From Chiloscyllium plagiosum (Eukaryota), in NCBI RefSeq assembly GCF_004010195.1, contig NC_057731.1, forward strand, positions 43,057,084-43,121,083: a stretch of DNA of 64,000 nucleotides. The letters run 5' to 3'. Position 1 is the stretch's first letter, and every line of letters starts with the position of its first letter. A program made the position numbers and the translations under genes. Below, in pieces: positions 4,000 to 60,630 of this stretch. The notes beneath the pieces are model-generated. The model did no database searches. It had not been told where the DNA came from and saw nothing but the letters and a program-made list of their open reading frames with translations.

Positions 4000-4420
4000 C
4001 AAGAACATTTTGCATTTTACACAGACTTTTACAATCCAACGATTCTTTTGAAGTTGTAATACAGGAATTCCCCAGCTTAACTGTGCATTCAAAGTTGCCA
4101 AACAGCAGTGTGATACTGACCAGATAATCTCACTTTAATTATGATGATTGTGGATAAATAATGGCCAGGATATCTGAAATAACTCAAAAGTAAAACATAA
4201 CGTATGCTGGAAATCTGAAGGAGAAAATGCTGAAAATACTCAGCAGATCAGGCAGCATCTTTGGAGAGGGAAATAGAATTCATGTTTCAGATTGATTCAC
4301 TAATCAGGAAATGAAAGGTCATCAAATTGAAGCATTAACCATTTTTCATAAGTAATAACTTGCCTGATCTTCTTTCAAATAGTCACCATTGGATATTTTA
4401 TGTTCAACTGAGGGGACTGG
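4000..4420 (-). mobile_element. Deu-domain SINE relic interrupted by a degenerate hammerhead-type PLE element (about 4190-4350)
   Basis: TGGATAAATAATGGCCAGGATA and CTTCTTTCAAATAGT..GGATATTTTATGTTCAACTGAG resemble the reverse of the Deu core. The insert carries the GCTGAAAATACTCAGCAGATCAGGCAGCATCT arm. Confidence 0.55.
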
Positions 4421-4421
4421 T

Positions 4422-4560
4422 CATGATGTAGAGGTGCTGGTTTTGGACTCGGGTGGACAAAGTTTAAAGTCACACAACACCAAGGCTATAGTACAACGGG
4501 TTTATTTTTAAGTACAAACTTTCGGAGCGCTGTTCCTTCATCAGGTAGCTAGTGACAGGA
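4422..4560 (-). mobile_element. Short PLE-derived element with hammerhead motif (AAGCT-type family)
   Basis: Minus strand reads CTAC-CTGATGA-A-GGAACAGCGCTCC-GAAA-GTTT-GTAC. Flanks match the elements at 21634-21814 and 60133-60351. Confidence 0.75.
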
Positions 4561-4689
4561 ATGATGGCATACAAGATAAATGGCAGAGAAAAGAAATAAT
4601 TTATTAAAGTTACATATGCTACAGTAAATAGTGTTATTTTCTGTTGATCACAAAAACTGAAATTAATTACTCTGGTCCTGAGTAGCAGG

Positions 4690-4832
4690 AGAAAATGAGG
4701 ACTGCAGATGCTGGAGAGTCAGAGTCAAAAAGGGTGGTGCTGATAAAGGGCTTATGCCTGAAACATCGACTCTCCTGCTCCTAGGATGCTGCCTGACCTG
4801 CTGTGCTTTTCCAGCGCCACCCTTTTCGACCC
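4690..4832 (+). mobile_element. Short PLE-derived inverted element with decayed hammerhead motif
   Basis: CTGATAA-A-GGGCTTATGCCT-GAAA-CATC at 4740-4767, with inverted arms GTCAAAAAGGGTGGTGCTG / CAGCGCCACCCTTTTCGAC. Confidence 0.75.
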
Positions 4833-5039
4833 TGAGTAGCAGTCAGTCAGGCAAATTAGTCACCTTTGTGGTCTCATTGGGATTTTATACATTTTGAGGG
4901 GGCTTGTGGAATGGTGGGGCATAATAAAACGGATTGGTCTGTTCAAATTGAAATAAACTACTATGATCTGACAGCTATTACAGAGACTGGGCTGTGAAAC
5001 AACAAAGCTTAGGTCCTGAATATTCAAGGTTACCTGCCA

Positions 5040-7610: not shown

Positions 7611-8558
7611 CTGCACAGAGAACAGAAGTTCAACATAAAGTCATTCATAGACAGTCCTTTCAACACAGAAATAGAAACAAAAGATATAAAACCTAGAAAT
7701 CAGAGGTAAAAATACTGCAGGTACATCAATGCCTCACCATCAACAGATTTTAGGATGGAGTTTGTGGTTGCAACTTCATGTCAAAATCCAATTCCAAACA
7801 CTCAAGTCTTAGCTAATTCAAAACATTCACAAACTTAAACATGTTCAAATTTGGTTTTAGCTAAAGGTGCAATGTCTATTGCACTAACTCCCTTTGGTTT
7901 TGTGATTGAAGTTATTAATGACTTGAAAAAATGAAAAAAATGGGTGTAACAGATTTCCAATAATCTGGAGAAAATTCTTGATTTATTGTCAATTTCTTCT
8001 GATGCAACTAAAAAATGTGTTTTGAGATTTGAATCTTGGCAGAAATATCTTTGCTGCTGATTGTCTCATGTAAATCCCATCAGGTTCCATACTCATTTCT
8101 GTTCGATATTGAAAAAGCTTCATTAACACAAATTTTTAAATGCAATATAATCAATTCATCTCAAACCTGACAAAAAATACAGAGTTCAGCTGAGTGTTTG
8201 CCAGGCTCTATTATGTAAAACCAAGTCATCTGCTTTCTTTCCTAAGTGAGGATTCTATAAATATGTTAAGCTTCAAATCAAAATACTCCAGTTCTGAAAT
8301 TAATGACAGAGAATAAAAATAGGGAGCATTTGTTACTCAAAAACGAATATTGTCCAATGGGCTTTATCTGAAGCTATTCTCACAAACAGTGATAAGCTAA
8401 TTATAAACATAAAAAGAAATTGCTAGATAAGCTCAGCAGGTCTGGCAGCATCTATGGAGAGAAATCAGAGTTCGCATTTTGGGTCAAGTGACCCTTCCTC
8501 AGAACTGATGGTAGCTAAGTAGTTCGCGTGCAGAAGATAGGGTGGAGGAGGTAAGAAG

Positions 8559-11158: not shown

Positions 11159-11358
11159 ATACTCAAAACCTAACGGTGTTGAATTCGATATTGAGTCCAG
11201 AAGGCTGCATCATCCCCAAGTGGAAAATGAGGTACTGTTCTTCCAGCTTGCGCTGAGCTTCACTGGAGCAGTGCAGCAAGCCTGAGATAGATGTTGGCCA
11301 GGGAACAGGATGGTGCATTGAAACTAATTATAGCCCTTTTTGCATTATTTGTTTAATA

Positions 11359-12820: not shown

Positions 12821-12958
12821 CCAAATCAATCAAAAATTTCAATAGAGGCTCCTCACCATCTTCTCAGAAGTGACTAGTGATATTCAATAACTTCAATATA
12901 CTCCACTGAAAACCAAAATAAAAATGTGATTTTTCTGTGCCTGAATTTGATTTGTTAC

Positions 12959-13254
12959 CTGAAGTGATATGGATCCAGTCTCCTTGTTGCGGGACAAGAA
13001 GCTGGATATGGACAGGCTTAAGTCTATGCTGTTGTTGTCTGCCATTGACCCGCTCCCAGAATCCGCATCTCTCTCTTTCTCTTTACCCATGCCCTTCGAT
13101 TGTGCAGCAGGATCCAAATTTTCCTTCATTTCTTCAGTGGTGACACTGATTTCAGGGATCATCTCCAGCTTTATGTCATCTGGACTCTCACTCTCTGTTT
13201 CCCTCACTTTATATGGCATAGCATCTTGTGTTTCATTCAACTCGCCACTCTGTG

Positions 13255-13290
<36 letters not shown>

Positions 13291-14167
13291 AAGGGTTAGT
13301 TTCAGATTGTGCCTTAGTTTCAGCCTCTGTCTCTGAAGTGTACCCTACTTTTACACCACTCTCAGTTACAATTTTTATCTCACAACATCCTTCACCTTCC
13401 ACTGATTGCGTAGCAGAGTTTACTTTGAGATCATCAGCCTGCTTCTCCTCTTTTGCTTCTTCACTGGGAAGAGCTGGGGTGTTTACAGTTGACTCTGTCA
13501 CATCCTGTTTTCCTTCCCCAGGAATTACATCCATTGTTTCTTCAGGTATATGCTCTTTCGATTGCACACTGATCACTGTTGCACTGGAAGCTTCCCTTGC
13601 TGCTTCTTGCTCACTTTTCTCTGCTTGTGTTTCTGCCAAGGCTTCTGTCACCTCAGGGTTGGTTGTTTTGTTCTCTCTCTCCACTTTATCTTCATTTGGC
13701 TCTGTGTCTGCCTCTTTCCCTTTTCCAGTTGCATTTTCCTTTTCTACCTCTGACACTTTGACTCTTTCATTTTCAGGTTTTCTAACATCCTCATGCACCT
13801 CAACTTCTTTCAGAGATTGTTCAGTGCTTTCATCAGCTTCTGGGATCTCCACATTTAGCTCTTCGGTCTCAGATTTTTCTTCGAACGGCACAGGTTTCCC
13901 AACCTTGGTATCCAGTTTCTCACTACCTCCTTGTACATCTTCATTATTGGTGTCAGCAGCATTGTTCTCCGTTGGCTTCTCCCCTTCACTGGTACCAATC
14001 CCTTCATCTGACAGCTTGTCGCTGACCTTGTCTGTATTTTCTTCAATGGACTCTGTCTCCATTTTCTCAGAAACTGCCTCAAGGACTGAGGGAGACTGGG
14101 ATAATTTTTCATCCTCAGAGCTGGCTGTGCTGATATCTGATGGGGCACGTTTATGTCCTGGCAAAGC
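12959..14167 (-). CDS. SLK: SLK large coding exon (exon 9 equivalent), acidic disordered linker
   Basis: 1209 nt (403 codons), ctAG|GCT...CAG|GTaac. The ends ALPGHKRAPSDISTASSEDEKLSQ and DSGSGSMADNNSIDLSLSISSFLSRNKETGSISLQ resemble SLK rather than STK10. Confidence 0.95.
13258..13290 (-). repeat. Pure (CTG)11 microsatellite encoding poly-Ala10 in SLK exon 9
   Basis: Direct count of 33 nt, translating PS-A10-VTQ on the coding strand. Confidence 0.95.
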
Positions 14168-14579: not shown

Positions 14580-15640
14580 CTTTTTTATATTTATTCATAG
14601 GTTAGGATGATTCTGGCAAGGCCAGCATTTATCAATCATCGCTAACTGCCACTGAGGTGATAGTAAATGAATGCTTTGGGCCCATGCGATCAAATATATG
14701 GTTAGTAACCAATGGTAACAGGGGAAAATCCAGGATGTTGAGATGACAACAGGAAAGATGATAAATTTTCAATTCAAGACGAAGAGCACTTTGCTTGTGA
14801 TGGTGTTCTCATGTTTCTGCTGGTATTGTTATCCCAAGATACTGGTTTAGAAGTTGCACTGAAGGTGGTTTGACAAGTTGACACAATACATCTTGCCAAG
14901 ATTGGAGGGTTTGTGCTATAGGGAGAGGCTGAATAGGCTGGGGCTGTTTTCCCTGGATGGTTGGAGACTGAGGGTGACCTTATAGAGGCTTATAAAATCA
15001 TGAGGGAAATGGACAGGTTAAATAGGCAAAATATTTTTCCTGGACTGGAAGAGTCCAGAAGTAGAGAGCATAAGTTTACAGTGAGAGTGGAAAGACTTAA
15101 AAAGGGAGCTAAGGGGCAATTTCTTTACGCAAAGGATGGTGCATATAGGAATGAGCTGCCAGAGGAAGTGGAGATGGCTGATATAATTACATTTGAAAGC
15201 CATCTGGTTGGGTACACGAATAGGAAAGGTTTAGAGAGATATGGGTCAAGTGCTGGCAAATGGGTCTAGATTAAGTTAAGATATCTGATTGGCATGGACT
15301 AATTGGACCAAAAGGTCCATTTCTATGCTGCACATCTCTTTGTAGATGGTAGACTCTGCTGCCACGGTGTGCGGTGGAGGAAGTGAATGTTTAAGGTGGA
15401 AGATGGTGTGTCAATAACCTGTGCCATTTTATCTTGGATGGGGTCAAACCTGAGTGTTTTGGAGTCGCATTTGCCCAGAGAAATAGGGAATATTCCATCA
15501 CACTCCAGATTTGAGCATTGTGGATGATGGGCAGACTGCAGGAAGTGAAGAGATGAGTTGCTCGCTGCAAAATTACTAGCCGTTAACCTACTTTCTTAAG
15601 TTGATCCAGCTAAGTTTATGATCAATGGAGAGATGGTTAC
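14580..15640 (-). mobile_element. Old LINE 3' fragment (L2/CR1 group) interrupted by a younger CR1
   Basis: TTTATTCATAGG..GGCAAGGCCAGCATTTAT tail, shared with about 50470-50985. Continues after 15340 (TTGTAGATGGTAGACTCTGCTGCCAC). Confidence 0.6.
14893..15340 (+). mobile_element. CR1 LINE 3' fragment
   Basis: GDLIEAYKIMREMDRLNRQ..FP ORF2 C-terminus followed by the CR1 tail. Confidence 0.88.
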
Positions 15641-15687
15641 ATCCCTGCCCTTTGCTGTTTTGTGAAATTACAAACTATTATTAACAA

Positions 15688-17212
15688 AGAAATAATGAAG
15701 AGGATTGACGACGGCAGAACGATAGACGTGATCTTATATGGACTTCAGTAATGGTTCCACAAGGCTCCTTATGGTAACTAATTAGCAAGGTTAGAACACG
15801 TTGAATACAGGGAGAACTAACCATTTGGATACAGAACCGGCTCAAAGGTAGAAGACAGAGGGTGGTGGTGGAGGGTTGTTTTTCAGACTGGAGGCCTGTG
15901 ACCAGCAGTGTGCCACAAAGATTGATGCTGGGTCCACTGCTTTTAGTCATTTATATGAATGATTTGGATATCAATGTAGGAGGTATGGTTAGCAAGTTTA
16001 CAGATGCACCAAAGTTGGAGGTGTACTGGACAGCAAAGAAGGTGGGTGACACGGTGGCACAGTGGTTAACACTACTGCCTCACAGCACCAAATACCTGGG
16101 TTCAATTCCTGCCTCAGGCAACTGTCTGTGTGGAGTTTGCACATTCTCCCCGTGTCTGCGTGGGTTTCCTCCGGGTGCTCCTGTTTCCTCCCACAGTCCA
16201 AAAATGTGCAGGTTAGGTGAATTGGTCATGCTAAATTGCCCATAGAGTTAGTTGAAGGGATAAATGTAGAGGAATGGGTCTGGGTTGTTTGCTCTTCGGA
16301 GGATTGTTGTGGACTTGTTGAGCCGAAGGGCCTGTTACCACACTGTAAGTAATCTAATTTTAAAAAAAAAGGTTACCTGCGTACAACAGTATCTTGATCA
16401 GATGGGCCGATGGATCAAGGAGTAGCATTTGGAGTTTAATTTAGATAAATATGAGGTGCAAATCAGGACAGGACTTATACACTTAATGGTAAGGTCCTGG
16501 AGAGTGTTGCTGAATAAAGAGACCTTGAAATGTAGGTTCATAGTTCCTTGAAAGTGGAGTCACAAATAGATAGGATAGTGAAGGCAAAAGTTGGTATGCT
16601 TGCCTTTCTTGGTCAATGCATTGAGCATAAGAGTTGGGAGGTCATGTTGCAGTTGTACAGGACATTGCCGAACCAATTTTTGGAATATTGTATGCAATTC
16701 TGGTCTCCCTCCTACTGGAAGAATGTTGTGAAACTTGAAAGGGTTCAGAAAAGATCCACAAGGATTTTACCAGTTTGAGCTATAGGGAGAGGCTGAATAG
16801 TCTAGGGCTAGCTTCCCTGGAGCATGAGAGGCTGTGGGGTGGGCCATTTAGAGGTTTATAAACTCACGAGGGGCATAGATAGGGTGAACAGCCAAATTCT
16901 TTTCCCTGGGGTGCAGGAGTCAAAAACTCGAGGATATAGTTTAAGGGGAGAGGAGAGAGATTTAAACGGACCCAAGGGGCAACCTTTTCACAGAGGGTGG
17001 TGTGTCTCTGCAATGAGCTGCCAGACAAAGTGGAGGAGGCTGGTACAATTACAACATTTAAAAGGCATCTGGATGGGTATATTAATAGGAAAGATTTAGA
17101 GGGATATGGACCAAATGCTGGCAAATGAGATTAGATTATTTTAGGTATATCTGGTCGGCATGGACGATTTAGACCAAAGGGTCGGTTTCCATGCTGTACA
17201 TCTCTATGACTC
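15688..17212 (+). mobile_element. 5'-truncated CR1 LINE containing a SINE insertion
   Basis: RT motifs VVEGCFSDWRPVTSSVPQ..LGPLL..YMNDLD..SKFTD, CR1 tail, and TSD TATTAACAA at 15679-15687 and 17213-17221. Confidence 0.9.
16044..16370 (+). mobile_element. HE1-like V-SINE
   Basis: tRNA-like head GGTGGCACAGTGGTTAACACT..GGGTTCAATTCC and V-domain TGTGGAGTTTGCACATTCTCCCCGTGTCTGCGTGGGTTTCCTCCGGG. CR1-like 3' end; flanked by AAGGT repeats. Confidence 0.85.
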
Positions 17213-17733
17213 TATTAACAACCTGTGATAAGAATAAGGCAGCATTTGATGAAACCTTGCAAAGCTCCAAGACAAACTCATGTCCCCTTGATGAACAATA
17301 TTGCAAAATGGCAAGTGGCTTAAGATCCAGGTTTCTTAACGAGTGAGCCTTTCAACTCTAATCACTGAAATAAGGAATCCTTTAAATTTATTATTGAAAC
17401 CTTTTTCCCATATAGACTTGTCTAGCTTCCCCTTGAATTCATTTTTATTATTTGTTTCAACTACTCCCTGTGGTAATGGGTTCTACATATTCACCACTGG
17501 GTAATGAACTTTCTTCTGAATTCCCTATGAGATTTTAATTAATAAATACCTCCCCACAATAAAGTGCTTTTTGTTCCGATATTCAAAGGTCGATGACATT
17601 CAGGTTCCTGCAAATTGAAGTACAAGGCCTGACAAATCAGTACCTTCTACCCAATTCAAGGTGATTCAAATCAAAGATTAAATGGATGACTGTGCTTGGA
17701 CACAAAACTGGAAAGCAAGTAACCTAACCATCA

Positions 17734-17928: not shown

Positions 17929-19089
17929 CTAGAAAGGGGAAAAAAAAAACAGATTTAGAAAAACAAAACTAACTTACACACAATAGGCCATGGTAATCCC
18001 AAATCTGTGACCACCAAGAAAAATACAGCAGAGGCATGCACAAGGCACTCATCATCATAATTTGGAACTATATTGCCATTCCTTAACTGTCGCTAAGTCA
18101 AAAGCCTGGAATTCCTTTCCTCCCAGCACCGTGTACCTACAACACACTGATTATAGCAGTTCAAAAAGATGACTCACCACCAGCTTCTCAAGGGTATTTA
18201 GGGATGGAAAATAAATGCTAGCCAAGACAGTGACACACACATGCAAATAATGGATCTAAAGAAAATACCTCATGTCCTGAGCTACTGCCAGTCATCAGAT
18301 ATGTGTCCCAAATTTGGCTCCCCCTCTATCACTGTGATGTAACTGCATCAGGCAGCAGTACAGCATTCATTGAGAAAGGAAAGAGATGTTGAGGCTCTAC
18401 CATGTTCTTAAGGTCTCCAGCATCACTTACACCAACCAATTTTAAACATGAACCGAAGCTGACCTGGAGCAAAATGGCCTATATTTCCACAGAGCTTAAG
18501 AAAACCCAAAAATCTGAAAAAACAGCCAGAAACGTAAATAGACCTGATGGAACATCATCCATATGAAAAATTAACTATTTCCTTCCACAGATGATGCCCA
18601 AACCTAAGTTTTTCCAGCCTTTTCTGTTTTATTTTAAAAAAGAAATGCAGTGGTCATCAGCATTGAACAGTTAATATCTCAGGCAGGATCATTCTACTGA
18701 TCCGGATCTTAAGTGGAATGCTAATTTGTCTCTTCAGATGCTGCTGCATCTATCATACAATTCTAGAATGCTCCATTTCAATTTCTTAAGTTTTTACCCT
18801 TTGCTGCAGATAATAAAATGAACAATAAGAGTTGGTTCTGAATTAGTATCAGAAATGGATTAATGGGGAATGTGACTGATTCTGGATCAGCACAGAGAAA
18901 AGGTGTAATGGAAAATACTATTAATTCTGGATTAGCATTGTGAAAAGGTTAATGAAGTGGAACAGGTTCAGAATCACTTGACTGAATTAAAGCTTACTTG
19001 CTGTCAAGATGCTTCCAAAACACTATTGCTTGATGAGCACCTTACATGTTCTCAGCGCCAATGATCTGGAGCTCACAAAATCTCTAACT

Positions 19090-21591: not shown

Positions 21592-21907
21592 TTAGTTCTG
21601 AAGAGGGTGTGCAGGTGCTGGACTGGGGAAGACAAGGTCAGAAGTCATACGACACCAGATTATAGTCCAACTAATTTATTTGATATCACAAGCTTTCAGA
21701 GTGCTGTCCCTTCTTCAGGTGAAGTCACCTGACAAAACAGGCAGCACTCTGAAAGCTTGAGATTTCAAGTAAACCTGTTGGACAATAACCTGGTGTCATA
21801 TGACTGCTGACCTTCTGAAGGGTCACTGGACCTTAAATGTTGACTCTGCCTTCTGTCCACAGATGCTGCCAGACCTGCTGAGTTTTTCTGACAATTTTTG
21901 TTTTTGA
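21592..21907. mobile_element. Hammerhead palindrome element (21634-21814) inserted in the hammerhead core of a second PLE-derived element
   Basis: About 180 bp hairpin centred on CAGGTGAAGTCACCTG. The outer element reads TTCTGAAGA[insert]GAAGGGTCACTGGACCTTAAATGTTGACTC..CACAGATGCTGCCAGACCTGCTGAG. Confidence 0.78.
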
Positions 21908-24511: not shown

Positions 24512-26935
24512 GTCTGCCCTGCCTCAGCTGAGGGCCACACACTCTCAGAATTGCAAAGGACCCACTCTGCACTACATCCTCAGGAGAATTCATACTCTCA
24601 ACAAACAGTATTTCACTCCATCTCAAAACATCAAAAACTATAAGTACAACAACCTTTTATCTACCCACCTCCACAACCAGCGCTCCTCAAACATTCCACT
24701 AGATTCCCCTGGTCTCTGGAACGTGTTTGCCACCACTTCCGCCCCACCAACGCCACTCACCTGCATTCTGCTGACACGCCCCCCCACAGATCCCACTGTC
24801 ACCATCCCCGCCCCCCAGAACCCTGAGGGGAACACCACCCCTACTCATGGCTCCAGCTGCATTCCCCACACTTCTTCCGCCGCCTTAGCCTCCGAGCTTA
24901 CTTTCACAATCAGGACTCCCGCCCACCTTCCGAGGACCCCTTCACCCATCTCCAACACACTGCATCCACCTGGACACCCCGCGCTGGCCTATTACCTGCC
25001 CTTGACCTCTTCATTTCCAACTGCCGCCGGGACATTAACCGCCTCCATCTGTCTACCTGCCTCCCCCACTCCAACTTCTCACCCGCACAATGTGCAGCCC
25101 TCCAATCCCGACCTCACCATCAAGCCAGCAGATAAAGGGGGCGCAGTGGTAGTCTGGCACACTGACCTCTACACCGCTGAAGCCAAATGCCAACTCGAGG
25201 ACACCTCTTCCTATCGTCCCCTCAACCATGACCACACCCCCATCACCAAACCATCATCTCCCAGACCATACAGAACCTCATCACCTCAGGAGATCTCCCA
25301 CTCACAGCTTCGAACCTCATAGTCCGGGAACCCCGCACTGCCCGGTTCTACCTCCTTCCCAAGAGCCACAAGTCTGACCACCCTGGCCAACCCCTTGTCT
25401 CAGCATGCTCCTGCCCCACTGAACTAATTTCTACCTACCTCGACATTGTCCTATCCCCTCTGGTCCAGGAACTCCCCACATACGTTCGAGACACCACCCA
25501 CGCCCTCCACCTCCTCCAAGACTTCCGTTTCCCCGGCCCCCAACGCCTCATCTTCACCATGGATATCCAATCCCTCTACACCTCCATCCGCCATGACCAG
25601 GGCCTCCAAGCCCTCAGTTTCTTCCTCTCCCGATGTCCCCAGCAGTACCCTTCCACCGACACTCTCATTCGCTTGGCCGAACTGGTCCTCACCCTTAACA
25701 AATTCTCCTTTGAATCCTCCCACTTCCTCCAGACCAAAGGGGTAGCCATGGGCACACGTATGGGCCCCAGCTATGCCTGTATCTTTGTTGGCTATGTAGA
25801 GCAGTTGATCTTCCGTAATTACACCGGCACCACTCCCCACCTCTTCCTCCGCTACATTGATGACTGCATTGGCGCCACCTCGTGCTCCCGCGAGGAGGTT
25901 GAGCAATTCATCAACTTCACCAACACATTCCACCCTGACCTTAAATTTACCTGGACCATCTCTGACACCTCCCTCCCCTTCCAGGACCTCTCCATCTNNN
26001 NNNNNNNNNNNNNNNNNNNNNNNNNNNNNNNNNNNNNNNNNNNNNNNNNNNNNNNNNNNNNNNNNNNNNNNNNNNNNNNNNNNNNNNNNNNNNNNNNNNN
26101 NNNNNNNNNNNNNNNNNNNNNNNNNNNNNNNNNNNNNNNNNNNNNNNNNNNNNNNNNNNNNNNNNNNNNNNNNNNNNNNNNNNNNNNNNNNNNNNNNNNN
26201 NNNNNNNNNNNNNNNNNNNNNNNNNNNNNNNNNNNNNNNNNNNNNNNNNNNNNNNNNNNNNNNNNNNNNNNNNNNNNNNNNNNNNNNNNNNNNNNNNNNN
26301 NNNNNNNNNNNNNNNNNNNNNNNNNNNNNNNNNNNNNNNNNNNNNNNNNNNNNNNNNNNNNNNNNNNNNNNNNNNNNNNNNNNNNNNNNNNNNNNNNNNN
26401 NNNNNNNNNNNNNNNNNNNNNNNNNNNNNNNNNNNNNNNNNNNNNNNNNNNNNNNNNNNNNNNNNNNNNNNNNNNNNNNNNNNNNNNNNNNNNNNNNNNN
26501 NNNNNNNNNNNNNNNNNNNNNNNNNNNNNNNNNNNNNNNNNNNNNNNNNNNNNNNNNNNNNNNNNNNNNNNNNNNNNNNNNNNNNNNNNNNNNNNNNNNN
26601 NNNNNNNNNNNNNNNNNNNNNNNNNNNNNNNNNNNNNNNNNNNNNNNNNNNNNNNNNNNNNNNNNNNNNNNNNNNNNNNNNNNNNNNNNNNNNNNNNNNN
26701 NNNNNNNNNNNNNNNNNNNNNNNNNNNNNNNNNNNNNNNNNNNNNNNNNNNNNNNNNNNNNNNNNNNNNNNNNNNNNNNNNNNNNNNNNNNNNNNNNNNN
26801 NNNNNNNNNNNNNNNNNNNNNNNNNNNNNNNNNNNNNNNNNNNNNNNNNNNNNNNNNNNNNNNNNNNNNNNNNNNNNNNNNNNNNNNNNNNNNNNNNNNN
26901 NNNNNNNNNNNNNNNNNNNNNNNNNNNNNTCCAGA
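24512..26935 (+). mobile_element. Penelope-like retroelement (Neptune-like RT), frameshifted, 3' part in the assembly gap
   Basis: NPDLTIKPADKGGAVVVW, MDIQSLYTSI, GVAMGTRMGPSYA, RYIDD and HPDLKFTW motifs. Perfect 12-bp TSD ATTTTTTCTACA at 24500-24511 and 26936-26947. Confidence 0.9.
25998..26929. other. Assembly gap (932 N)
   Basis: Run of N characters. Confidence 1.
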
Positions 26936-28168: not shown

Positions 28169-28447
<279 letters not shown>

Positions 28448-29275: not shown

Positions 29276-29653
<378 letters not shown>

Positions 29654-32169: not shown

Positions 32170-34097
32170 AAATACTGTTTCAAAGTCCATATAAAGTCCC
32201 ATATAAGAGACTGTTGACTTAAGCAGAAGTCCACGGAACGGAGGTCGGATCACTGACGGGGCTGGGAAATTAGTTGAGTGTCACAGGACAGAAAGTAGGG
32301 ATAATGGATAGGGCCTCAATTTTTTTTTTAATGAATGCCTTGGATAATGGCATACAAATTTACATATCAAAATCAGTTGATGACACAAAGTTAAGCGGCA
32401 CCATAGACAGTGTAGATGATAGCATAAAATTACAAAGACATATTAATAGTCTAAGTGAATGGAGAAAACTGGGTCTGATGGAGTTTAAAGTAAATGTGAG
32501 ATTTGTTAAATACAGTAAATATCCAGAGACCTGGGTGTTTAGATGCATATATTGTTAAAATGTCATAAACAGGTGTAGAAAATAATCAAGTTAGTTAATA
32601 GAATGCTGGCCTTTATATCGAGAGGGCTGAAGTATAAGGTCACAAACGTTATGCTGCAGTTATACAAAACCCTGATTAGGCCCCACTTAGACTCGTGAGC
32701 AAATCTGGGCACCGTACCTTATAAAGGATATACAGATATTGGCCTTAGAGGGAGTACAACATAGGTTTGCAAGAATATTCCCTTGGTCCTCACATTCCAC
32801 CCCAATCTTCAAACCCAATGCTTCATCCTCCATCATTTTCTCCACCTGCAGTCTGACCCCACCACCAAAAAGACTTTTCTTTCCCCACCATAGGGAACGT
32901 TCCCTCCGCAACTCCCTCATTGGTCCACACTCCCCATCAACCTCTCCTCCACACCTGGCACCTTTCCCTTCAACTGCAGGAGATGCAACACTTGTCACCA
33001 CATCTCCCCTCTTATCTCCATTCAAGGCCCCAAAGAATCATTCCGAGTCCAGCAGAGATTTATTTGCATTTCCTCCAACTCGATTTACTGCATCTGTTGC
33101 TCCGGATGTGGTCTCCTCTACTCTATATCAGAGAGACTGAACGCAAACTCAGGGACCAGTTCAGGGAACATCTAAGGTCTGCATGCTCCAATCAACCCCA
33201 CCTCTTAATTGCCAGCCATTTTAACTCCTCCTCTCATCCCTTAATGACACGTCCATCCTTGGCTTCCTCCACCTTCAAAATAAGGCAACACGCAAACTAG
33301 AGGAACAGCACCATGTCTCAACAGAATTCACAAGCTTCCAAATCTGTCCACTCCCCACCGCATTCCAGGTCCAGCCGTCTCTGTCCACCCCCAACCCTTG
33401 ACCTGATCTAACCTGTCCATCTTCCTTCCTGCCTGTCTGCTCCACCCTTCTTACTGACCAATCTCGATCACCTCCTACCTGCATCCACTTATCGCCATCC
33501 CACCTACCTTTCCCACAGCCCCAACCCCCCCTTTTTTATTTATTTCTCAACCCTCTTCTGCCCCCACTCCTAGTTCTGTGGAAGGATCCTGCCCAAAACA
33601 TCGATGATGCTGCTTGACCTGCAGTGGTTTTTTCAGCTCCACATTTGATCAACCCTAAGAATGAATGAAAGCTATACTTTAGGGATTATTTTATGAGGAG
33701 ACATTATACAAATTAGGTCGGTTTTCTCTAGAATTTAGAAGGTTAAGGGATGATCTAATCAAGTCTTCAAGATATTAACAGAAGACAGGATAGATAAACT
33801 GTTTCCATTGGTTCGAGATTCTAGAACATGTGGGCGTAGTCTCAGAATTAGGGCCAGACAGTTCAGGAGAGACATTACATGCAAAGGATGGTAGATGTTT
33901 GGAATTCTCTACTATAAATGGCAATGGATGCTGAATCAGTTGTTAATTTTAAATCAGAGATGGATAAAATTTTCTAAGCAAAGATATTGAGAGATATGGG
34001 TCAGGTTGGCATATGCAATTAGGCCACAAATTAGCCATGAACTCAGCGAATGGTGGAAGAGGCTCAAGGGGTTGAATGGCCTACGCCTGTTCCTATG
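32170..34097 (+). mobile_element. Decayed CR1 LINE interrupted by a Penelope fragment
   Basis: ISKSVDDTKLSG and ALEGVQHRFARI before 32780. It resumes at about 33655 with GAATTTAGAAGGTTAAGGGATGATCTAAT and a CCTACGCCTGTTCCTATG tail. Confidence 0.75.
32780..33655 (+). mobile_element. Penelope-like 3' fragment: GIY-YIG endonuclease relic, pyrimidine-rich 3' region, decayed hammerhead end
   Basis: LLYIRETERKLRDQFREHLRSACSNQPHLLIASHFNS and RKLEEQH. The end reads TTCTGTGGAAGGATCCTGCCCAAAACATC..GATGCTGCTTGACCTGC. Confidence 0.8.
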
Positions 34098-34510
34098 ACA
34101 GAATGAATTCTGTACATTTTTATAAAAATGTATTAAAGATTAAAGTTATACAGAAACAAAGTCTTAAGCAGAAAACAAGTTGAGGGAAAAATGCCTTGCT
34201 CAATCATGTGTACATATATATGTTACAAAAGTCTATCTGGCTGTTATGTCACTTAATCCCTTTGATTATTCTGTTGTTATAGTGTTGGGGGTGGGGGGAT
34301 TGTAAGATTCAGCTTTCACAAGAAAGCTCCCGCTAGGCCCTGGAAGTCTTGGTGCAGTACCAGCATGAAAGGTTGCGCATTGTCAATGCTATTTTTCTAA
34401 ACCTTTAAAGGGCCCAGTCATCTGCAGAGTTGGGAACACACAGAGGGTCAGCAGGATTGGAACTAGTGCAAAAAAAAAAGACTATGAGGTTAAGACTGGT
34501 CATAAAAGGT

Positions 34511-34629
34511 TCCTGAAGGGCTTATGCCCGAAACGTCAATTCTGCTCCTCGGACGCTGCCTGGCCTGCTGCGTTTTTCCAGCACCACATTTTTCAACTGT
34601 GGTCTCCAGCATCTGCAGTCCTCACTTTC
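34511..34629 (+). mobile_element. Monomeric PLE-derived hammerhead element with TSD
   Basis: TC-CTGA-A-GGGCTTATGCCC-GAAA-CGTC (3 nt of the core missing). Flanks TCATAAAAGGT (34500-34510) and TCATAAAAAGGT (34630-34641). Confidence 0.82.
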
Positions 34630-34719
34630 TCATAAAAAGGTAAGCCACCTGACAATATCAAAAGTTAGCTGCTCTGCTGTAGGTAGAGAATGGTCTATCC
34701 CAGACAGAATGTTGCTGTA

Positions 34720-34951
34720 GACAAAAGTAGAAATTGCTGGAAAAGCTCAGCAGGTATGGCAGCATTTGTGGAGAGCAATCAGAGTTAATGTTTCAGGTTG
34801 AGTGACCCTCCCTTAGTTCTGAGGAATGGTCACTCCACCTGAAACATTAACTAATTTCTCTCCACAGATGCTCCCAGACCCGTTGCGCTTTTCCAGCAAT
34901 TTCTATTTTTGTTTCAGATTTACAGCATCTGCAGTTCTTTTGGTTTTTATT
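34720..34951. mobile_element. Head-to-head palindromic PLE hammerhead element
   Basis: Arms AGAAATTGCTGGAAAAGC..GTTAATGTTTCAGGT..GAGTGACC / GGTCACTC..ACCTGAAACATTAAC..GCTTTTCCAGCAATTTCT. Plus-strand CTGAGGA-A-TGGTCACTCCACCT-GAAA-CATT. Confidence 0.82.
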
Positions 34952-38494: not shown

Positions 38495-38671
38495 ATACTG
38501 AAAGAACTACGGCTGCTGTAAATTGGAAACAAAAACAGAAAATGCTGGAAAAACTCAGCAGGTCTGGCAGCACCTGTGAAGAAAAATCAGATTTGACGAT
38601 TTAGGTCCAGTGACCCTTTCTCAAAGCTGCCAGATCTGCTGCATTTTTCCAGCAATTTCTGTTTTTGTCGT
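38495..38671 (-). mobile_element. PLE-derived partially palindromic element with 14-bp TSD
   Basis: TAATTTTCTGGGGA at 38481-38494 and 38672-38685. Inverted arms and a decayed hammerhead on the minus strand (TTGAGAAAGGGTCACTGGACCTAAATCGTC). Confidence 0.82.
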
Positions 38672-39975: not shown

Positions 39976-40198
39976 TACAGGTAGTCCTTCTATAACACTA
40001 TGATTGTATTCTTGAGCAACTCTGCATTATAGAAAAATTGTGCTTTAGAAACAGCGCTTAAAGTGTTGGAGATATAATTGTGTTACGGCCAACACACATT
40101 TTAAAAGTTTGTGCTTTGGAAAAAGTGTCCCAGTTTGCCAATCGTGTCATAGTGAATTTGCTTTTAACAAAATGTGTTATAGCAGAATGAACTGTGTA
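39976..40198. mobile_element. Tc1/mariner (Tigger-like) MITE
   Basis: TACAGGTAGTCCTTCTATAACA / TGTTATAGCAGAATGAACTGTGTA imperfect TIRs with TA ends. Confidence 0.65.
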
Positions 40199-40284
40199 TC
40201 ACCAACCTTTGTATAATCATACAAACATACAAACTAGAGGCAGGAGGAAGCCATTCACTCTTCAGGGTAACTGCACTTTTCAAT

Positions 40285-43300: not shown

Positions 43301-43615
<315 letters not shown>

Positions 43616-45310: not shown

Positions 45311-45657
45311 ACCAAAAAAGAGGAAATGCTGGAAGATCTCAGCAAGTCTTGCATCATCTGCAAGGAGAGAAAAGAGCTGACGTTTCGAGTCTTAGACTCG
45401 AAACGTCAGCTCTTTTCTCTCCTTTTCCCTAAGTGGGAAGGCAAATACTGTACATAGTACCAAAAAAGAGGAAATGCTGGAAAATCTCAGCAAGTCTTGC
45501 ATCATCTGCAAGGAGAGAAAAGAGCTGACAAAGGGTCAGTTAGACTCGAAACGTCAGCTCTTTTCTCTCCTTACAGATGCTGCAAGACTTGCTGAGATTT
45601 TCCAGCATTTTCTCTTTTTTGGTTTCAGATTCCAGCATCCGCAGTAATTTGCTTTTA
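45311..45657. mobile_element. Palindromic PLE hammerhead element with a local 148-bp tandem duplication, inside an old minus-strand CR1
   Basis: Units 45277-45424 and 45425-45572. Perfect 30-bp-arm palindrome at 45362-45424. CTGACAA-A-GGGTCAGTTAGACTC-GAAA-CGTC-AGCTC at 45525-45560. Confidence 0.85.
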
Positions 45658-48422: not shown

Positions 48423-48626
48423 TCGGGATCAATGGTGCTGGAAGAGCACAGCAGTTCAGGTAGCATCCGAGGAGCTTCAGCAAATCGACGTTTCGGGCAA
48501 AAGCCCTTCATCAGGAAAACGTCGATTTTGCTGAAGCTCCTAGGATGCTGCCTGAACTGCTGTGCTCTTCCAGCACCAATGATCCAGAATCTGGTTTCCA
48601 GCATCTGCAGTCATTGTTTTTACCTT
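48423..48626. mobile_element. Palindromic PLE hammerhead element with perfect 14-bp TSD
   Basis: TCCAATATTTATTA at 48409-48422 and 48627-48640. Inverted arms of about 68 bp at 48426-48493 and 48517-48585. Confidence 0.88.
48482..48519 (-). ncRNA. Minimal type I hammerhead ribozyme motif, intact core
   Basis: TTC-CTGATGA-A-GGGC-TTTT-GCCC-GAAA-CG-TC|GATTT. Predicted cleavage between 48487 and 48486. Stem I is only 2 bp. Confidence 0.65.
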
Positions 48627-49280
48627 TCCAATATTTATTACTCAATTAACATCACGAAAATAATTGTGTTTTGTGCTGCTAAGATGACTTTTCTTCTGAA
48701 CTTAATCTAGGAATGGTCCCTTACCATCCAGTGCTGTGCAGGGCATAGAAGTTCAACTTTGTAAAAAACTCATCACTTAAGTCGCATACATTCTTGGAAA
48801 CCATGTTTGAATTTGCTATTCCAAAACAACTTTCTGACGTTTCTGACAAAGTCACCTCCACATAAAATCAATTTTGCTTCAATTTAGAATCCAAATGTCC
48901 AAATAATAACAATACTACAAACCTGCATTGGAGGAAGTAATAAGTGAAAGTTTTTCATATTTTTCTCTCATTTCTGAAGGCTGTCCTCAAACAGATCGCA
49001 GGGAAATCTCATGGTCGCACACATTTCCATCCCAAATCAAATTTCTAGATTTTTTCCACATTTCTTGATTTACTGAGATATTCTTTTGCTGTACTTTAAT
49101 AAAGAAGTTTTGTAGAGTAACCTTAAATACCTTTGCAATGTAAACAGAAAGTACTGGAGAAGTACTTTGGTTCCAAGGCAAGTCATATTGGACTTCAAAT
49201 ATAAACTGATTTTCTAAGAAAAAAAAATACATATTGGACATGAAATGTTAATTCTAATTCTCTTTACATAGATGGTGCTG

Positions 49281-49520
49281 GGTCAAAAAGTGTGGCGCTG
49301 GAAAAGCACAGCAGGTCAGGCAGCATCCAAGGAGCAGGAGAGTTGATATTTTGAACATATGCTCTTCATCAGTATGCTGAATCAGGATGTATCCTGATGA
49401 AGAGCTTACGCTCAAAATGTTGACTCTCCTGCTCCTTGGATGCTGCCTGACCTGCTGTGCTTTTCCACTGAATTACATTTTGACTCTGATCTTTAGCATT
49501 TGCAGCCCTCTCTTTCTCCT
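49281..49520. mobile_element. Head-to-head palindromic PLE element with two CpG-decayed hammerhead motifs
   Basis: GCTCTTCATCAG at 49361-49372 and CCTGATGAAGAGCTTACGCTCAAAATGTTG at 49393-49422. Imperfect flanking repeat CATAGATGGTGCTGG / CATACATGCTGCTGG. Confidence 0.8.
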
Positions 49521-53592: not shown

Positions 53593-54446
53593 CAGAGTGG
53601 ATAAACAGCTGGGTGTGCATTTAATTAAGATCAGATAGCCTTCTGCACTTACTCTCCAGAGAACATTTACACATGCACATAGGCAGAAGCTTAAATCATT
53701 AATGAGCGCATTCAATAACAAAACTCAATGAGAAAAAGCCAGTACAAGCAGAAACAGTATACCAATGTAACAGGTATATAACTAGACCTATGCCTGAAAG
53801 GATAACCATTAGTCCAACTTCCTCAATACAACTCAGAAACGCAGAAAGAGGAGGAGTAGGTCATTCAATATGATCACTGCTTATCATCCTACTCAGTCCC
53901 CTGACCCACTTTCACCCCATACCTTTTGAACCCTTTAACCTGAAGTAGGGTATCTAATTCCGTCTTGAAAATAGTCAATGTTTTGGTCTCAACTGTGGCA
54001 GAGAATTCCATAGGTTCACCACTCTCTGCATGATGAAATTTCTCCTCATCTCAGTTTCAATGGCCTCTAACCTAAATAGTCTTCAACAACATCCTTGCTG
54101 CATTTACCCTGTTTAGTGCTGTTAAAACTTTAAGGTTTCCAGAAGATCCCTACCCCCCCAACTCATGCCCACACCCCCACCCTATTTTTCTGAACTGCAG
54201 TGAATATTGTTCCAACCAATCCAGTCTGTGATCATACATGTGTCATGCCACCCCAGGCTGAGAGAGAATTCATGCATTTCACACTATGTATTCAATTTCA
54301 GATATTGATACAACCTAAAAGTACAATAGACAGCTACTTGAAAACTAAGATGCCTGTGTATTTCATACTTACAGTCTCGTATAAAGCTAAAAAAACTGAA
54401 ATTGCACACTGTGAATTGAAAGTAGGAGAAATTTTAACACAGAAGT

Positions 54447-54870
54447 TGTTGTGGTTCTGTTCGCCGAGCTGGGAATTTGTGTTGCAGACGTTTCGTCCCC
54501 TGTCTTGGTGACATCCTCAGTGCTTGGGAGCCTCCTGTGAAGCGCTTCTGTGATCTTTCCTCCGACATTTGTAGTGGTTTGAATCTGCCGCTTCTGGTTG
54601 TCAATTCCAGCTGCCCGCTGCAGTGGTCGGTATATTGGGTCCAGGTCGATGTGCTTATTGATTGAATCTGTGGATGAGTGCCATGCCTCTAGGAATTCCC
54701 TGGCTGTTCTCTGTTTGGCTTGTCCTATAATAGTAGTGTTGTCCCAGTCGAATTCATGTTGTTTGTCATCTGCATGTGTGGCGACTAAGGATAGCTGGTC
54801 GTGTCATTTCGTGGCTAGTTGGTGTTCATGGATGCGGATCGTTAGCTGTCTTCCTGTTTGTACTTAGGAC
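54447..54870 (-). mobile_element. Penelope-like (Poseidon-type) 3' fragment: GIY-YIG C-terminus plus hammerhead end
   Basis: Minus strand translates QTGRQLTIRIHEHQLATK*HDQLSLVATHADDKQHEFDWDNTTIIGQAKQRTAREFLEAWHS..INKHIDLDPIY. Flanks TTTTAACACAGAAGT (54432-54446) and TTTTAATACAGAAGT (54871-54885). Confidence 0.88.
54484..54523 (-). ncRNA. Minimal type I hammerhead ribozyme motif, intact core
   Basis: GCA-CTGAGGA-T-GTCACC-AAGACA-GGGGAC-GAAA-CG-TC|TGC. Stem I is GCA/TGC, stem II is GTC.CC/GG.GAC, stem III is the ACGT palindrome and the cleavage triplet is GUC. Confidence 0.75.
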
Positions 54871-56374: not shown

Positions 56375-56655
56375 TGAAGGGATGACCATTTAAAACTGAG
56401 AAGAAGAAGAAATTCTTCAGTCAGAGAGTATGAATCTGTGGAATCATTGCTGGAGAACACTATGGAGGCCAGCTCATTGAGTGTCTTTAAAACAGAGATA
56501 GCTAGGTTCTTGATTGTAGGGGGGGATTAACAATACAGGGAGAAGATTGGAGAATGGGGCTGAGAAACATATTGGCCATGATTGAATAGTGGAGCAGACT
56601 CAATGGGTCAAATGACCTAATTCTGTTCCTATATCTCATTGTCTATGGTCTAATA
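56375..56655 (+). mobile_element. CR1-type LINE 3' fragment
   Basis: TTTAAAACTGAG..GAATCTGTGGAATC..AAATGACCTAATTCTGTTCCTAT..TATGGTCT tail. Confidence 0.75.
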
Positions 56656-58396
56656 CTATAAGATCAGCTCAGAGGTGAGTAAATGTGAACACAACTGCTG
56701 GTATTTGCAGCACTTTACAGTTGTATTCTTCATCTGCTGCAATTTATTTTTCTTTAAGGATGAAGATTATGCCGATAATGTGAACTGAAAAGAAATAGGA
56801 GAAGGCTTGTGCAGAGAATAAACACCAGCAAAGCCAGAGGTTTATTCCTGTGCCGTGCATTCTGGTGATTTGTGATTTCTGTTTCATTTTTCATTCAGTA
56901 TGGGAGGAGGTTGGGCAGTTGGAACAAGTCTATATAAGCAGTTACTAGCTGGAAAGGGTCTAGCAAGAGAACTCCAAACAGAAAACCACCATCAGGAGTG
57001 GTAACATGATTAGGAAGTGATGGCTTCATACAAGCTTCTGAGCAGCAATTAAGCGAGTCGAGTATCTTGGTGAAAAGGACCTTGCACGACTGCAGGCAGA
57101 TAGATACAGAGGCACTAATCGGTTAGACTGAATAACGTGAGAGATACGATTTGAGTTCCACACATCCGTAGAAACCAATCATTATAGAACATGCTATCAA
57201 AAACTATTACACCATCAATGTTTCTTCCTTATACAGTAAAGAATTAACAAAAAAAGCCAAAAGAATCAATGGAAATCATAAATTTGCTGCAAGTCCACGA
57301 GATAAAGACAGGGTAGATTGTGCGAATCTTTTCCCAATGGTTGACATGCCTAAGACCAGATTGCATAAGTTTAAGATGAGGAGTAATTGATTTAGAGAGG
57401 ATCTGAGGGAAGTCATTTGTTTTTATTCATTCACAGGATAATGTGCATCGTTGGCCAGGTCAGCATTTATTGCCCATCCTGAAGTTAAGTGTCAACTATA
57501 TAGGAGCGGCAGATGGAGCTTAATTTAGATAAGCGTGAGGTGCTTGTTGATCATTGACATGGTGGGCCTAAGGGCCTATTTCTATGCTGTATTGTTAGGT
57601 TCTTTTTCCAAAGATCCTTACACACTTGATGCAACTTCAACATGCCAACTTCTGTGAACAATCAAAAATTAATTAAGTGCAGTACAGTATTAATCTTCTG
57701 AAGAAACCTTTAACACACACTTTACAGGGCTTGCAGAGTTGTGTCAAAGATCTCTCTGAACAAAGAAAACAGTTCTTCCTTTATTCAAAATCTTTACATC
57801 ACAGTCAGTAATGCCCACAAGACAACCCCTAGCCATCCTCCCAGTCACATGCCCCTCTAGACACAATGCAGTGACCACATCATTTTCAGAAACAACAAAA
57901 TGTAAATCATCCCTTAATGGTCAAATCTGTTATGAATTGTTTTTAAACCATAGGGAGTCGTCAAAACTCCAACTGTAATGTTCTTATTGATTTCTGAATA
58001 GAATGATGATGCAGATATAAATTATCTCTGAATAATAGGAGATGGCCATGTAAATGACTCTGAATGGCAAGGGATGGGAATGTAAATTCTTTACATTCTA
58101 CCTGTAGAACATAGACATCCCACCCTAGCCTCGAAACATCCAATTTCCTGCAGATCAGCAAAGCAAATTAACTCTTTAATATCACAGTATGACTCTATGT
58201 AAAATACTGAAAAACGATCCAGACAAATTGGACTCAATTAAGTGTATACTGGTATCCAATGACAGGCCCCATTTTCTCCACCACAAATTCACACACACCC
58301 TGCTAAGTCTTGGGAATCACAGCAAACTCCAGTTTTACAACAGTATTTTGTCAATTGGCTGAAGTATACCAGTCAGAAGAGGAAACTCCCCAGTAT

Positions 58397-58698
58397 GGCC
58401 ACACAGTGGCTAGTAGTTAGCACTGCTGCCTCAGAGAGCCAGGGACACAGGTTCAATTCCAGTCTTGGGTGACTGTGTGGAGGTTGCACATCCTCCCAGT
58501 GTCTGTGTGGGTTTCCTCCCACAGTCCCAATATGCGCAATTTAGGTGAACTGGCCAAGCTAAACTGCCCATAGTGTTCAGGGATACGTAGGTTAGGTGCA
58601 TTAGTTAGGGGAATGGGTCTGGGTGGGATCCTCTTCGGAGGGTTGGTGTAGATTTGTTGGGCCAAATGGCCTGTTTCCACACTTTAGGGATTCTATAT
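58397..58698 (+). mobile_element. HE1-like V-SINE
   Basis: GTGGCTAGTAGTTAGCACTGCTGCCTCA..GGTTCAATTCC head, shortened V-domain and GGCCTGTTTCCACACT..GGGATTCTAT tail. Confidence 0.85.
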
Positions 58699-59289
58699 TT
58701 TGTCCTCACAAATGGATACCATGGTTCACTAAAATATTCATACTGGCAACCCATCTGGGTTCAGTAAACCTGGCATAACCCAAAAATCTTCCTAGTTACC
58801 GGATTATCTCCCTGAATAGAACACTTGAGCTCGTCTAATCTGGCATTACTGATATTAGCTGGAGCAACATGAGAGATAACATGTAATTATAATACCACAT
58901 TTAAGTCATGTCTTCAATCACAGCCCAGTATACTATGCACCATATTCCTGCTGTACACCATGTATCGAAGCTTGTGAACCTTACATTGACGAAAAATGCA
59001 TAACAAGTCACATATATACATCAAAATGAACAATGCATCAGAGGCTTTAAAAAAATACAGCTTTGTTAATTACAAGATATCAACTGTCAATTTATAGCAT
59101 ATGCAGTACAAGTAACCTTACTATATAGCAAAGGTAGCTGTCTAATCCAGGAATTAGTAGTCCCATACCACTATTTGATGATGAGCAGTATGTTTTCCCA
59201 TCCTCTTGGTAAACATTCTGTCCATGATTTTAAAATAAAAGGTCAGTTTCTCATTTACCTTGGTGTTGTTTGTGGACACTTGCTGTTTA

Positions 59290-60630
59290 ATAGCCTTCAT
59301 CCTAGGATCTTAACAGAAGCGTCCGGACAGTTTGCTGATGCATTTGTTTTAATTTTCCAAAATTCCTTACACCAGTAGGTTCCATTAGATAAGAAAATAG
59401 TGAATACAACACCTTTATCTTAAAAGGGAGGAAGATATAAAGCAGAAAACAACAGGCTGGTTTATCTTAACATCTGTCACAGGAAATGTAACTAATGTTG
59501 TGTCAGGGTGTTTAGAGAAATTCAAGGTAATCAGGCAGAGTCAACATGGTTCTGCGAAAGAGAAACAAATTTAATCAATTTAATGGAGATTTCTGAAATA
59601 GTAGTGTACTGTGGATGAAAATGAACTGATGTTAACATTAATGTATGTTAATTTCCAGGTGCCACAAAGGTCACTACAGAATACAAAACCACAAGATGCA
59701 GGGGGTTACACCAGCATGGACAGAAGCTAAGCTAATAGGAAACTGAGAGTAAGCATAGATGGAGCAATTTCTGGTTAGCAAAATGCAACAAGGCGTATAC
59801 TACAGGGATCAATGCTGGGACCTCAACTTTTGACTATTTACATTAGTTGGTTGGATGAAGAGACCAAAGGTATTGCTGCTGATAACAAAGATAGGATAGG
59901 AAAATGAAATTGTGAAAAGGACATATGAGGTTACATAGGGACATAAAATAGGCTAAGCGAGTGGGCAAAGGAGCATAACGTTGGAAAATGTCCATTTTGG
60001 CAGGAAGAGTAAAATAAAATGCTTCTAATTAGTGAGAGTTTGCAGAGCCCTAAGATGCAGAGAAATCTGGCTGGGCTACAGCATGAATTATAAATGGGTA
60101 GCATTCAGGTACAGAAAGCAATTGGGAAAATAAAGTTAAAAATTACACAAAACCAGATTATAATCCACCAGATTTATTTGGAAGCACTAGCTTTCAAGGT
60201 GCTGCCTCTTCATCAGGTGGTTTGCAGCAGGACCAGGTGGTGTCTTCTGATCCTGCTCCACAACCACCTGATGAAGAGGTAGTGCCTCAAAAGCTAGTGC
60301 TTCCAAATAAATCTGTTGGACTATAACCGAGTGTTGTGTGACTTTTAACTTGTCCACACCAGTCCTCCAAATCGGGAAATCAACACGATGTTATAATTTA
60401 AAGTGAGCAGAATTGAATACAAAAGTAGAGAGCTTATGGTTCAGTTATACACGGCATTAATGAGGCCACATCTCAATTATTGGTTTCCTTATTTAAAGAA
60501 CATTGTAATTGTAATGGGAGTAGTTCACAGAGGTTTACTGGACTAAAACTGGAATGGATGGGTTGTCTTATGAGGAAAAGTTGGACAGGTTAGACGTCTA
60601 TCCACTGGAGTTCAGAAGAGTTAAAAGGAT
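59290..60630 (+). mobile_element. Old CR1 LINE fragment hosting a hammerhead palindrome
   Basis: CATCCTAGGATCTTAACAGAAG, AGTCAACATGGTT, CAGGGATCAATGCTGGGACC and GGAGTTCAGAAGA segments. Confidence 0.7.
60133..60372. mobile_element. Head-to-head palindromic PLE element with two hammerhead motifs (AAGCT-type family)
   Basis: Minus strand CAC-CTGATGA-A-GAGGCAGCACCTT-GAAA-GCTA-GTG and plus strand CAC-CTGATGA-A-GAGGTAGTGCCTC-AAAA-GCTA-GTG. The hairpin spans about 220 bp. Confidence 0.85.

Follow-up and report, generated by a model that had tools for sequence, protein, structure and literature searches.

Short hammerhead-containing repeats in a Chiloscyllium plagiosum locus as probable terminal-repeat-only insertions of Penelope-like elements

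Introduction

A stretch of 64,000 nucleotides from Chiloscyllium plagiosum (assembly GCF_004010195.1, contig NC_057731.1, positions 43,057,084 to 43,121,083 of the forward strand; below, the window) contains sixteen named loci in which an original prediction, made from the sequence alone, recognized short and often palindromic repeats with a hammerhead ribozyme motif. Two origins were offered for them: truncated and inverted insertion products of Penelope-like elements (PLEs), or non-autonomous, retrozyme-like short interspersed elements (SINEs) mobilized by PLE enzymes. How did these copies arise, and why are they so short? The analysis described below suggests that they are probably insertions of the pseudo-long terminal repeat (pLTR) alone, made by autonomous PLEs when reverse transcription was primed in the 5' repeat of the mRNA and ran off the RNA 5' end after 90-130 nt. 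As a class these elements are ordinary, since both the inverted-pLTR shape and minimal hammerheads, including opposite-strand pairs, have already been published. The origin of the tandem and inverted repeats of PLEs and the role of their hammerheads are treated as open questions in the available excerpts of PMC8557442 (all papers and preprints identified by number here are cited from such excerpts), and the pLTR-only stubs provide a clue to how a poorly understood class of retroelements copies itself.

Repeat families and their link to coding elements

All 16 named loci proved to be related repeats that sort into four families, in agreement with the predicted minimum of four: family A (4690, 29276, 33570, 34511, 48423, and 49281, of which 33570 was assigned by inspection), family B/B2 (4190, 8406, 34720, 38495, 45311, the weak remnant 18530, and the right part of 21592), family C (4422, 21592, and 60133), and family D (54447). 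The inverted dimers that had been expected at several loci were confirmed as a head-to-head arrangement at 8 of the 16. The hammerhead motif said to be shared by about 15 loci fared less well: a strict scan, requiring the palindrome and UH, was passed by only three cores (48514, 21718, and 60216, all on the minus strand), compared to no such match in 100 dinucleotide shuffles. The minus-strand core at 54520 is intact with a damaged stem II, and most of the remaining cores in the window are decayed, with one to three substitutions each. The scan found no sensible core at 34511 and 38495, and those at 4190 and 18530 are doubtful. A search against Rfam returned no hammerhead family match and 17 hairpin-like matches to microRNA (miRNA) models, all below the gathering score.

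The family reference sequences contain the core, one bulged base after A9, stem II, GAAA, a 4-nt palindrome (stem III), UH, and a short stem I, which for B2 was read from copies rather than from the reference; the predicted structure fits the published minimal type I hammerhead. The B2 core (window 45311-45655; also L003, L061, and L082) has U3-A8 in place of C3-G8, and the same covariation has been published for the minimal hammerheads of Schistosoma.

Direct repeats flanking several of the loci had also been reported. Looked for at all 16, they are clean at 4690 (12 bp), 38495 (14 bp), 48423 (14 bp), and 34511 (8 bp) and imperfect at 49281, 60133, 45311, and 4190, whereas the 8-bp match at 33570 is probably a chance one and none was found at the remaining seven.

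Three fragments coding for the GIY-YIG endonuclease (EN) were thought to end in a short unit. Such a fragment lies 5' of the unit at two loci (33570 and 54447), but the third (11175-11282) adjoins no named unit, and a Pfam search with the window fragments matched one of seven proteins, by its reverse transcriptase (RT) domain only. A family A unit follows RT on its 3' side and in the same direction in 16 of 20 RT loci, gap-free in four of the 16; the other four loci have an assembly gap where the unit would be. At locus L117, RT, a CX4CxxC linker, and GIY-YIG occupy one frame; RVT_1 (E 3e-6) and GIY-YIG (E 7e-4) each fall a little short of the Pfam cut-offs there, while the GIY-YIG domain of L124 passes. 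Units of B, B2, and C, and likewise those of family D, have GIY-YIG-region sequence upstream (in B and C the coding sequence was followed no further than that region). Because each family continues upstream into GIY-YIG-coding sequence, all four are, judged by this sequence context, pLTRs of GIY-YIG-coding PLEs, and the first of the two proposed origins is thereby supported. The elements display the features of endonuclease-containing (EN+) PLEs, namely RT with a C-terminal GIY-YIG in one open reading frame (ORF), a pLTR with an optional tail of 30-40 bp, inverted copies, and target-site duplications (TSDs) of variable length.

A CX2-5CxxC linker between RT and EN is present in A and C (the sequence for B did not extend there), and the family D loci L271 and L276 have CxxC inside GIY-YIG and no linker finger. 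By the linker, using the clade definitions in the excerpts of PMC8557442, A and C appear to be of the Neptune/Nematis type and D of the Poseidon type.

Structure of short copies and palindromes

For family A we examined 72 tails, taken as they follow one another in the genome (70 from the head of the match list and two from overlapping stretches). Among them, 45 are confined to the last 145 nt; of the latter, 24 are palindromic, 21 having a TSD call. The order within a palindrome is TSD, inverted arm, variable junction, direct arm running to the tail end, and TSD, mostly of 10-17 bp. There are two fixed sites for the 3' ends, the tail-less site and the tail end, separated by about 35-40 nt; in family A palindromes the inverted arm usually starts at the former, some 35-39 nt short of the tail end, and the direct arm stops at the latter. 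In all loci collected, query-selected ones included, exactly one arm has the tail in 102 of 106 palindromes.

The centres of these palindromes are almost all different, with 91 junction classes among 102 and a single pair of identical centres among 106, whereas both arms belong to the same subfamily class in 54 of 60 palindromes (0.28 expected by chance; 34 of 39 without query-selected loci). Two family A variants that at first seemed to exist as short copies only turned out to have long or RT-linked copies, and every common variant occurs with long upstream sequence. Since the junctions vary, the arms share a subfamily, and the variants also occur in long copies, the palindromes would thus arise insertion by insertion from RNA of coding subfamilies and not from a palindromic master.

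These data bear directly on the second proposed origin, that non-autonomous retrozyme-like SINEs or palindromic master elements are copied as units by PLE enzymes. Such units would agree with the very high copy number, the near-fixed ends, and the excess of short over long copies in several variants, and PLE derivatives of this kind exist elsewhere according to excerpts of PMC8557442 and of bioRxiv 10.64898/2026.07.22.740005. However, the variety of junctions, the long copies of each common variant, including both short-only candidates, the lack of an independent subfamily, and the absence of head-to-tail arrays within the window speak against it, and we consider this origin very unlikely.

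The short copies were also compared with three established classes. For a SINE or other non-autonomous family, subfamilies of its own that are absent from coding copies would be expected, and family A has none. A miniature inverted-repeat transposable element (MITE) has a single fixed junction between its terminal inverted repeats, in place of which the 91 classes and arms unequal by the tail were found. Head-to-tail hammerhead units, typical of non-LTR retrozymes, occur neither in the window nor among the 72 family A tails examined; genome-wide arrays were not searched.

Several individual loci have a more complex structure. A family A palindrome of another subfamily lies directly after a pLTR tail in a partial tandem (L131, reverse strand, 2430-2650) and has a 15-bp TSD, possibly as a result of targeting of the element's own end. 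At L175, L036, and L040 the last 55-65 nt of the repeat are fused to sequence from the ORF start and to another piece of the repeat, which points to template jumps inside the leader. Finally, L300, L301, and L302 represent one insertion with identical flanks at three genomic places, which probably spread by duplication or inside another repeat.

5' ends and promoter layout

The positions of 5' ends were counted relative to core base C3, for A and C without query-selected elements. In family A, 65 of 163 arms end within -10 to 0, 17 further upstream, and 81 downstream; in family C, 23 of 46 end within -12 to 0 and 7 upstream; and in family B, 21 of 58 end within -10 to -1 and 6 upstream. A TATA box is found at -33/-35 in B, -36 in B2, -38 to -40 in C, and -53 in D, and an initiator-like +1 base at -4 in A and B and at -7/-8 in C, about 30 nt after the TATA box in B, B2, and C. 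Of 29 family D copies, only one has its end at the hammerhead edge, and the break points of three short palindromes lie at -23 to -30. Because the TATA box of D is at -53 and there is no pile-up at its hammerhead, this family, on few loci, favours a transcription start over a structural stop, and we infer that the pile-up of 5' ends in A, B, and C marks the transcription start, at or near the start of stem I.

The original prediction contrasted a distinct short form with random 5' truncation of known elements lacking subfamily structure of their own. The latter description holds insofar as no independent subfamily was found, but the 5' ends are non-random: in A, B, and C they cluster at the hammerhead's 5' edge.

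An alternative explanation combines ordinary 5' truncation with fold-back self-priming and later deletion of the palindrome centre, the pile-up reflecting trouble of RT at the hammerhead structure. Self-priming has been proposed for head-to-head PLE junctions in the excerpts of PMC3846280, microhomology jumps across the core do occur (two deletions, with 101 and 103 exact matches), and the 5' ends in A, B, and C pile up where stem I has its outer end. On the other hand, a stalled RT would be expected to stop at the 3' foot of the stem and not beyond it, and family D shares the fold yet has no pile-up there. The inverted arm also often extends further 5' than the tail-bearing arm, and as it reaches 1,060 nt versus 30 nt in the extreme case, L057, fold-back alone is insufficient. 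Overall this explanation is unlikely, although fold-back with later centre deletion is possible for symmetric palindromes.

Two further details of the 5' ends were observed. In the diverged family A subfamilies L040, L082, and L120, a short TATA-like word lies about 32 nt before the initiator-like base. Several copies among L206-L235 that start at the pile-up are preceded by a short repeat of the first bases of the core, possibly due to reiterative synthesis at the template end.

Transcripts and the family C poly(A) site

Raw poly(A) RNA reads of a related organism (run X23, of which about 2% was sampled) were aligned to the family C repeat. The reads are about 5:1 sense-derived, 456 and 437 of them continue into poly(A) at +52 and +58, respectively, and coverage of the sense-derived strand drops from 1221 to 258. 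A canonical poly(A) hexamer is present at +38 in 51 of 66 family C copies, and a GU-rich stretch follows the site. The resulting order of elements in the family C repeat is TATA (-40), start (-8), core, predicted cut (after +28), signal (+38), poly(A) (about +55), tail-less site (about +83), and tail end (about +120). Inserted family C copies could end host transcripts. In L126 (1165-1185) the poly(A) signal of the family C pLTR alternates between two canonical hexamers across copies. Reads aligned to family A have a peak of loose ends 4 nt before the core, which partly reflects upstream divergence of subfamilies and is not used here as evidence.

In the open literature we found no description of pLTR-only stubs with an end at the start site, of polyadenylation within a pLTR, or of the family D comparison; subscription journals, Repbase, Dfam, or supplements may hold one for the first two.

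Hammerhead fold and cleavage

The fold predicted for the transcript of a palindrome is a single long hairpin (z -17), inside which the core is buried. Among monomer folds, stem II is formed in three of six and the full junction in none, which is expected since the motif has no stable stem III.

If the short copies were reverse transcripts of hammerhead-cleaved RNA, their 5' ends should lie at the cut site. A genome-wide pattern for a break at the predicted cut gave 1,423 matches, compared to 271 for the pattern placed three bases upstream and 814 for that placed four bases downstream. This excess is confounded: among 30 inspected cut-site matches, 6 are small indels or substitutions and about 10 are microhomology joins, which together explain much of it, and a deletion across stem II, taken as a control, is found as often as the cut-site deletion. 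Moreover, only four unselected arms end at the predicted cut versus a local mean of 1.4 (p 0.056), none of the family C arms collected, a small sample, starts exactly after it, and most copies retain the whole core upstream of the cut. Cleaved templates would apply to at most a few percent of copies, and as a general explanation they are most improbable.

Proposed mechanism

The reading that we prefer, pLTR-only insertion by autonomous PLEs, can be described as follows. The enzyme of the element would prime inside the 5' repeat of its own mRNA, at the tail-less site or at the tail end. As these start sites would lie 90-130 nt from the RNA 5' end, cDNA synthesis would run off that end and yield a stub of the observed size. 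In a palindrome, each start site would be used to prime one of the two strands of a staggered cut, and the resulting pair of short cDNAs would be joined with little or no microhomology, so that each palindrome would be built anew with one tail and a TSD. According to the excerpts of PMC11167929, the RT of an anole PLE indeed starts in vitro at two internal sites bounding the tail and extends both target strands. The family C mRNA, ending in poly(A) before both start sites, would have them only in its 5' repeat, and copying the whole element would therefore require a jump to the 3' repeat, circularization through the two hammerheads, or read-through; the stubs would be the cases in which this transfer failed.

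More tentatively, the whole pLTR can be considered as a U3-R-U5-like repeat in which R is the entire minimal hammerhead. The mRNA would start at stem I and, in family C, acquire poly(A) 25-30 nt after the cut; its two terminal hammerheads would form the dimer for cutting or circularization; the RT start sites, present only near the 5' end, would lead to strong-stop products followed by a jump or a circle; and about 0.8 million stubs would be fossils of failed transfers. We regard this scheme as possible but doubtful; if true, it would explain partial tandems, tails, and inverted pLTRs together. Retroviruses have a U3-R-U5 repeat, form minus-strand strong-stop DNA primed from tRNA, and use an integrase. 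The family C order of TATA box, start, repeated region with the poly(A) signal, and priming region is similar, whereas priming here would be from nicked target DNA instead of tRNA, no integrase is involved, and the jump itself is only proposed. The stubs give base-precise predictions of the transcription start, the RT start sites, and the family C poly(A) site.

Several observations weigh against pLTR-only insertion as outlined above. The two arms are of different subfamily classes in 6 of the 60 palindromes. From the 5'-end counts, 28 A arms and 10 C arms were dropped because of a gap or indel, and since these are probably mostly long, the share of short 5' ends is inflated. In family A, for which sampling is best, the reference shows the initiator-like base at -4 but lacks a TATA box, and the comparison with family D depends on three loci. 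As a test for a cap-derived G, the extra base at the 5' end was counted as G in 57 and A in 43 of the first 100 matches listed (hand count; the window composition predicts 40:60), but in several of those with G the core start is briefly re-duplicated. The promoter layout is not universal, since the Penelope element of D. virilis has, according to excerpts of PMC2377424 and PMC4209133, a TATA-less internal promoter and an intron before the hammerhead. Families A, B, B2, and D contain no poly(A) hexamer within the repeat. Among the alignments listed, family A reads show neither a strand bias nor a poly(A) end, and A and C reads show no place where many molecules begin or end. For family C, the reads were drawn from about 2% of a single run of another organism; a few loci, or host genes ending in an inserted copy, may account for them.

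Comparison with known systems

An inverted 5'-truncated pLTR, a tail of 30-40 bp, and a TSD are described for EN+ PLEs in the excerpts of PMC8557442 and, for Adineta Pen2a, of PMC3846280. As far as these sources go, head-to-head pLTRs, a one-sided tail, variable TSDs, 5' truncation, and the order RT then GIY-YIG are common to both, and the elements studied here differ in that most insertions are pLTR only, occur about once per 4 kb, and have non-random 5' ends. Published minimal hammerheads share with our families the bulge after A9, G10.1-C11.1, the palindromic stem III, and the short stem I, as well as the prevalence of solo copies and opposite-strand pairs 100-700 bp apart; here, insertion ends, a putative promoter position, and, for family C, a poly(A) site are described in addition, for families whose activity is predicted from sequence alone.

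A likeness in RT starts is seen with the Anolis Poseidon element PAc studied in vitro (Frangieh et al. 2024, PMC11167929, in excerpts), with its two internal sites bounding the tail and both-strand extension; uncut RNA was its main template, and A, B, and C differ from it in being of the Neptune/Nematis type. Neither pLTR-only palindromes nor the transcription start or polyadenylation figure in these excerpts. Metazoan non-LTR retrozymes, as described in excerpts of PMC7229834 and bioRxiv 10.64898/2026.07.22.740005, are also short non-coding type I hammerhead units related to pLTRs, but they form head-to-tail arrays expressed as circles, whereas the window units are solo or head-to-head and continuous with coding elements.

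Abundance and features of the window

In forty 10-kb stretches of four contigs outside the window (389,916 called bases) we counted 94 loci, or one per 4.1 kb in all forms. The palindromic form, to which a density of about one copy per 4 kb had been ascribed, accounts for 18 of the 94, or about one per 22 kb. Extrapolated from these 94 loci in 390 kb, about 0.8 million loci would be present genome-wide. An exact search with a 28-base word from the tail of one family A subfamily gave 19,977 matches in the genome, and the window RT fragment has 55,223 first-look candidates. Such loci are predicted to form long hairpins in introns, and they can be mistaken for MITEs, SINEs, or miRNA hairpins.

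Table 1. Repeat units and coding fragments of Penelope-like elements in the window
Positions	Strand	Feature	Evidence
1..321	+	RT-coding fragment, family A element	tblastn, 94% to family A reference
4204..4339	-	Decayed family B arm, core doubtful	Repeat comparison, hammerhead scan
4421..4560	-	Family C unit with tail; C3 of core at 4544, one substitution	
4687..4832	+	Family A unit: short inverted tail-bearing piece and tail-less direct arm; 12-bp TSD at 4677 and 4831	
8399..8517	-	Family B arm with two substitutions in its core at 8502	
11175..11282	-	Small fragment of the GIY-YIG region, not adjoined by a named unit	
18564..18630	+	Weak family B remnant without recognizable core	
21609..21796	.	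Family C palindrome; minus-strand intact core at 21718	
21817..21906	+	Family B arm immediately 3' of the C palindrome	
24869..25996	+	RT-coding fragment, family A element, enters assembly gap	Pfam RVT_1, E 5e-8
29277..29372	+	Family A arm, start 4-5 nt before core	
32780..33362	+	Decayed zinc-linker and GIY-YIG fragment, Neptune/Nematis type	
33570..33660	+	Decayed hammerhead unit, three substitutions, at 3' end of fragment 32780..33362	
34506..34634	+	Tail-bearing family A arm with part of the core lost; flanking repeat of 8 bp	
34721..34945	.	Family B palindrome; arm starts 4 and 6 nt before core	
38495..38671	.	Family B palindrome; 14-bp TSD at 38481 and 38672	
45311..45655	.	Family B2 palindrome; left part and flank locally duplicated	
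48423..48626	.	Family A palindrome; 14-bp TSD at 48409 and 48627; inverted arm 48423-48517 without tail (intact core 48514-), tail-bearing direct arm 48517-48626	
49280..49520	.	Decayed palindrome of family A; flanking repeat of 15 bp, imperfect	
54445..54864	-	Family D: Poseidon-type GIY-YIG fragment, 3' end, closing with a tail-less hammerhead unit, core 54520	
60133..60365	.	Family C palindrome; intact core 60216-, arm starts 6 and 12 nt before core	

The named loci sit between the exons of a kinase gene on the minus strand (window 43298-43615, 29294-29653, 28166-28447, and 12893-14167; Pfam Pkinase), which we take to be SLK/STK10-like. A second abundant repeat family occupies window positions 14878-17218, 22047-23131, 38801-41191, and 62769-63697 and, from its translated motifs, presumably consists of fragments of a CR1-like long interspersed element.

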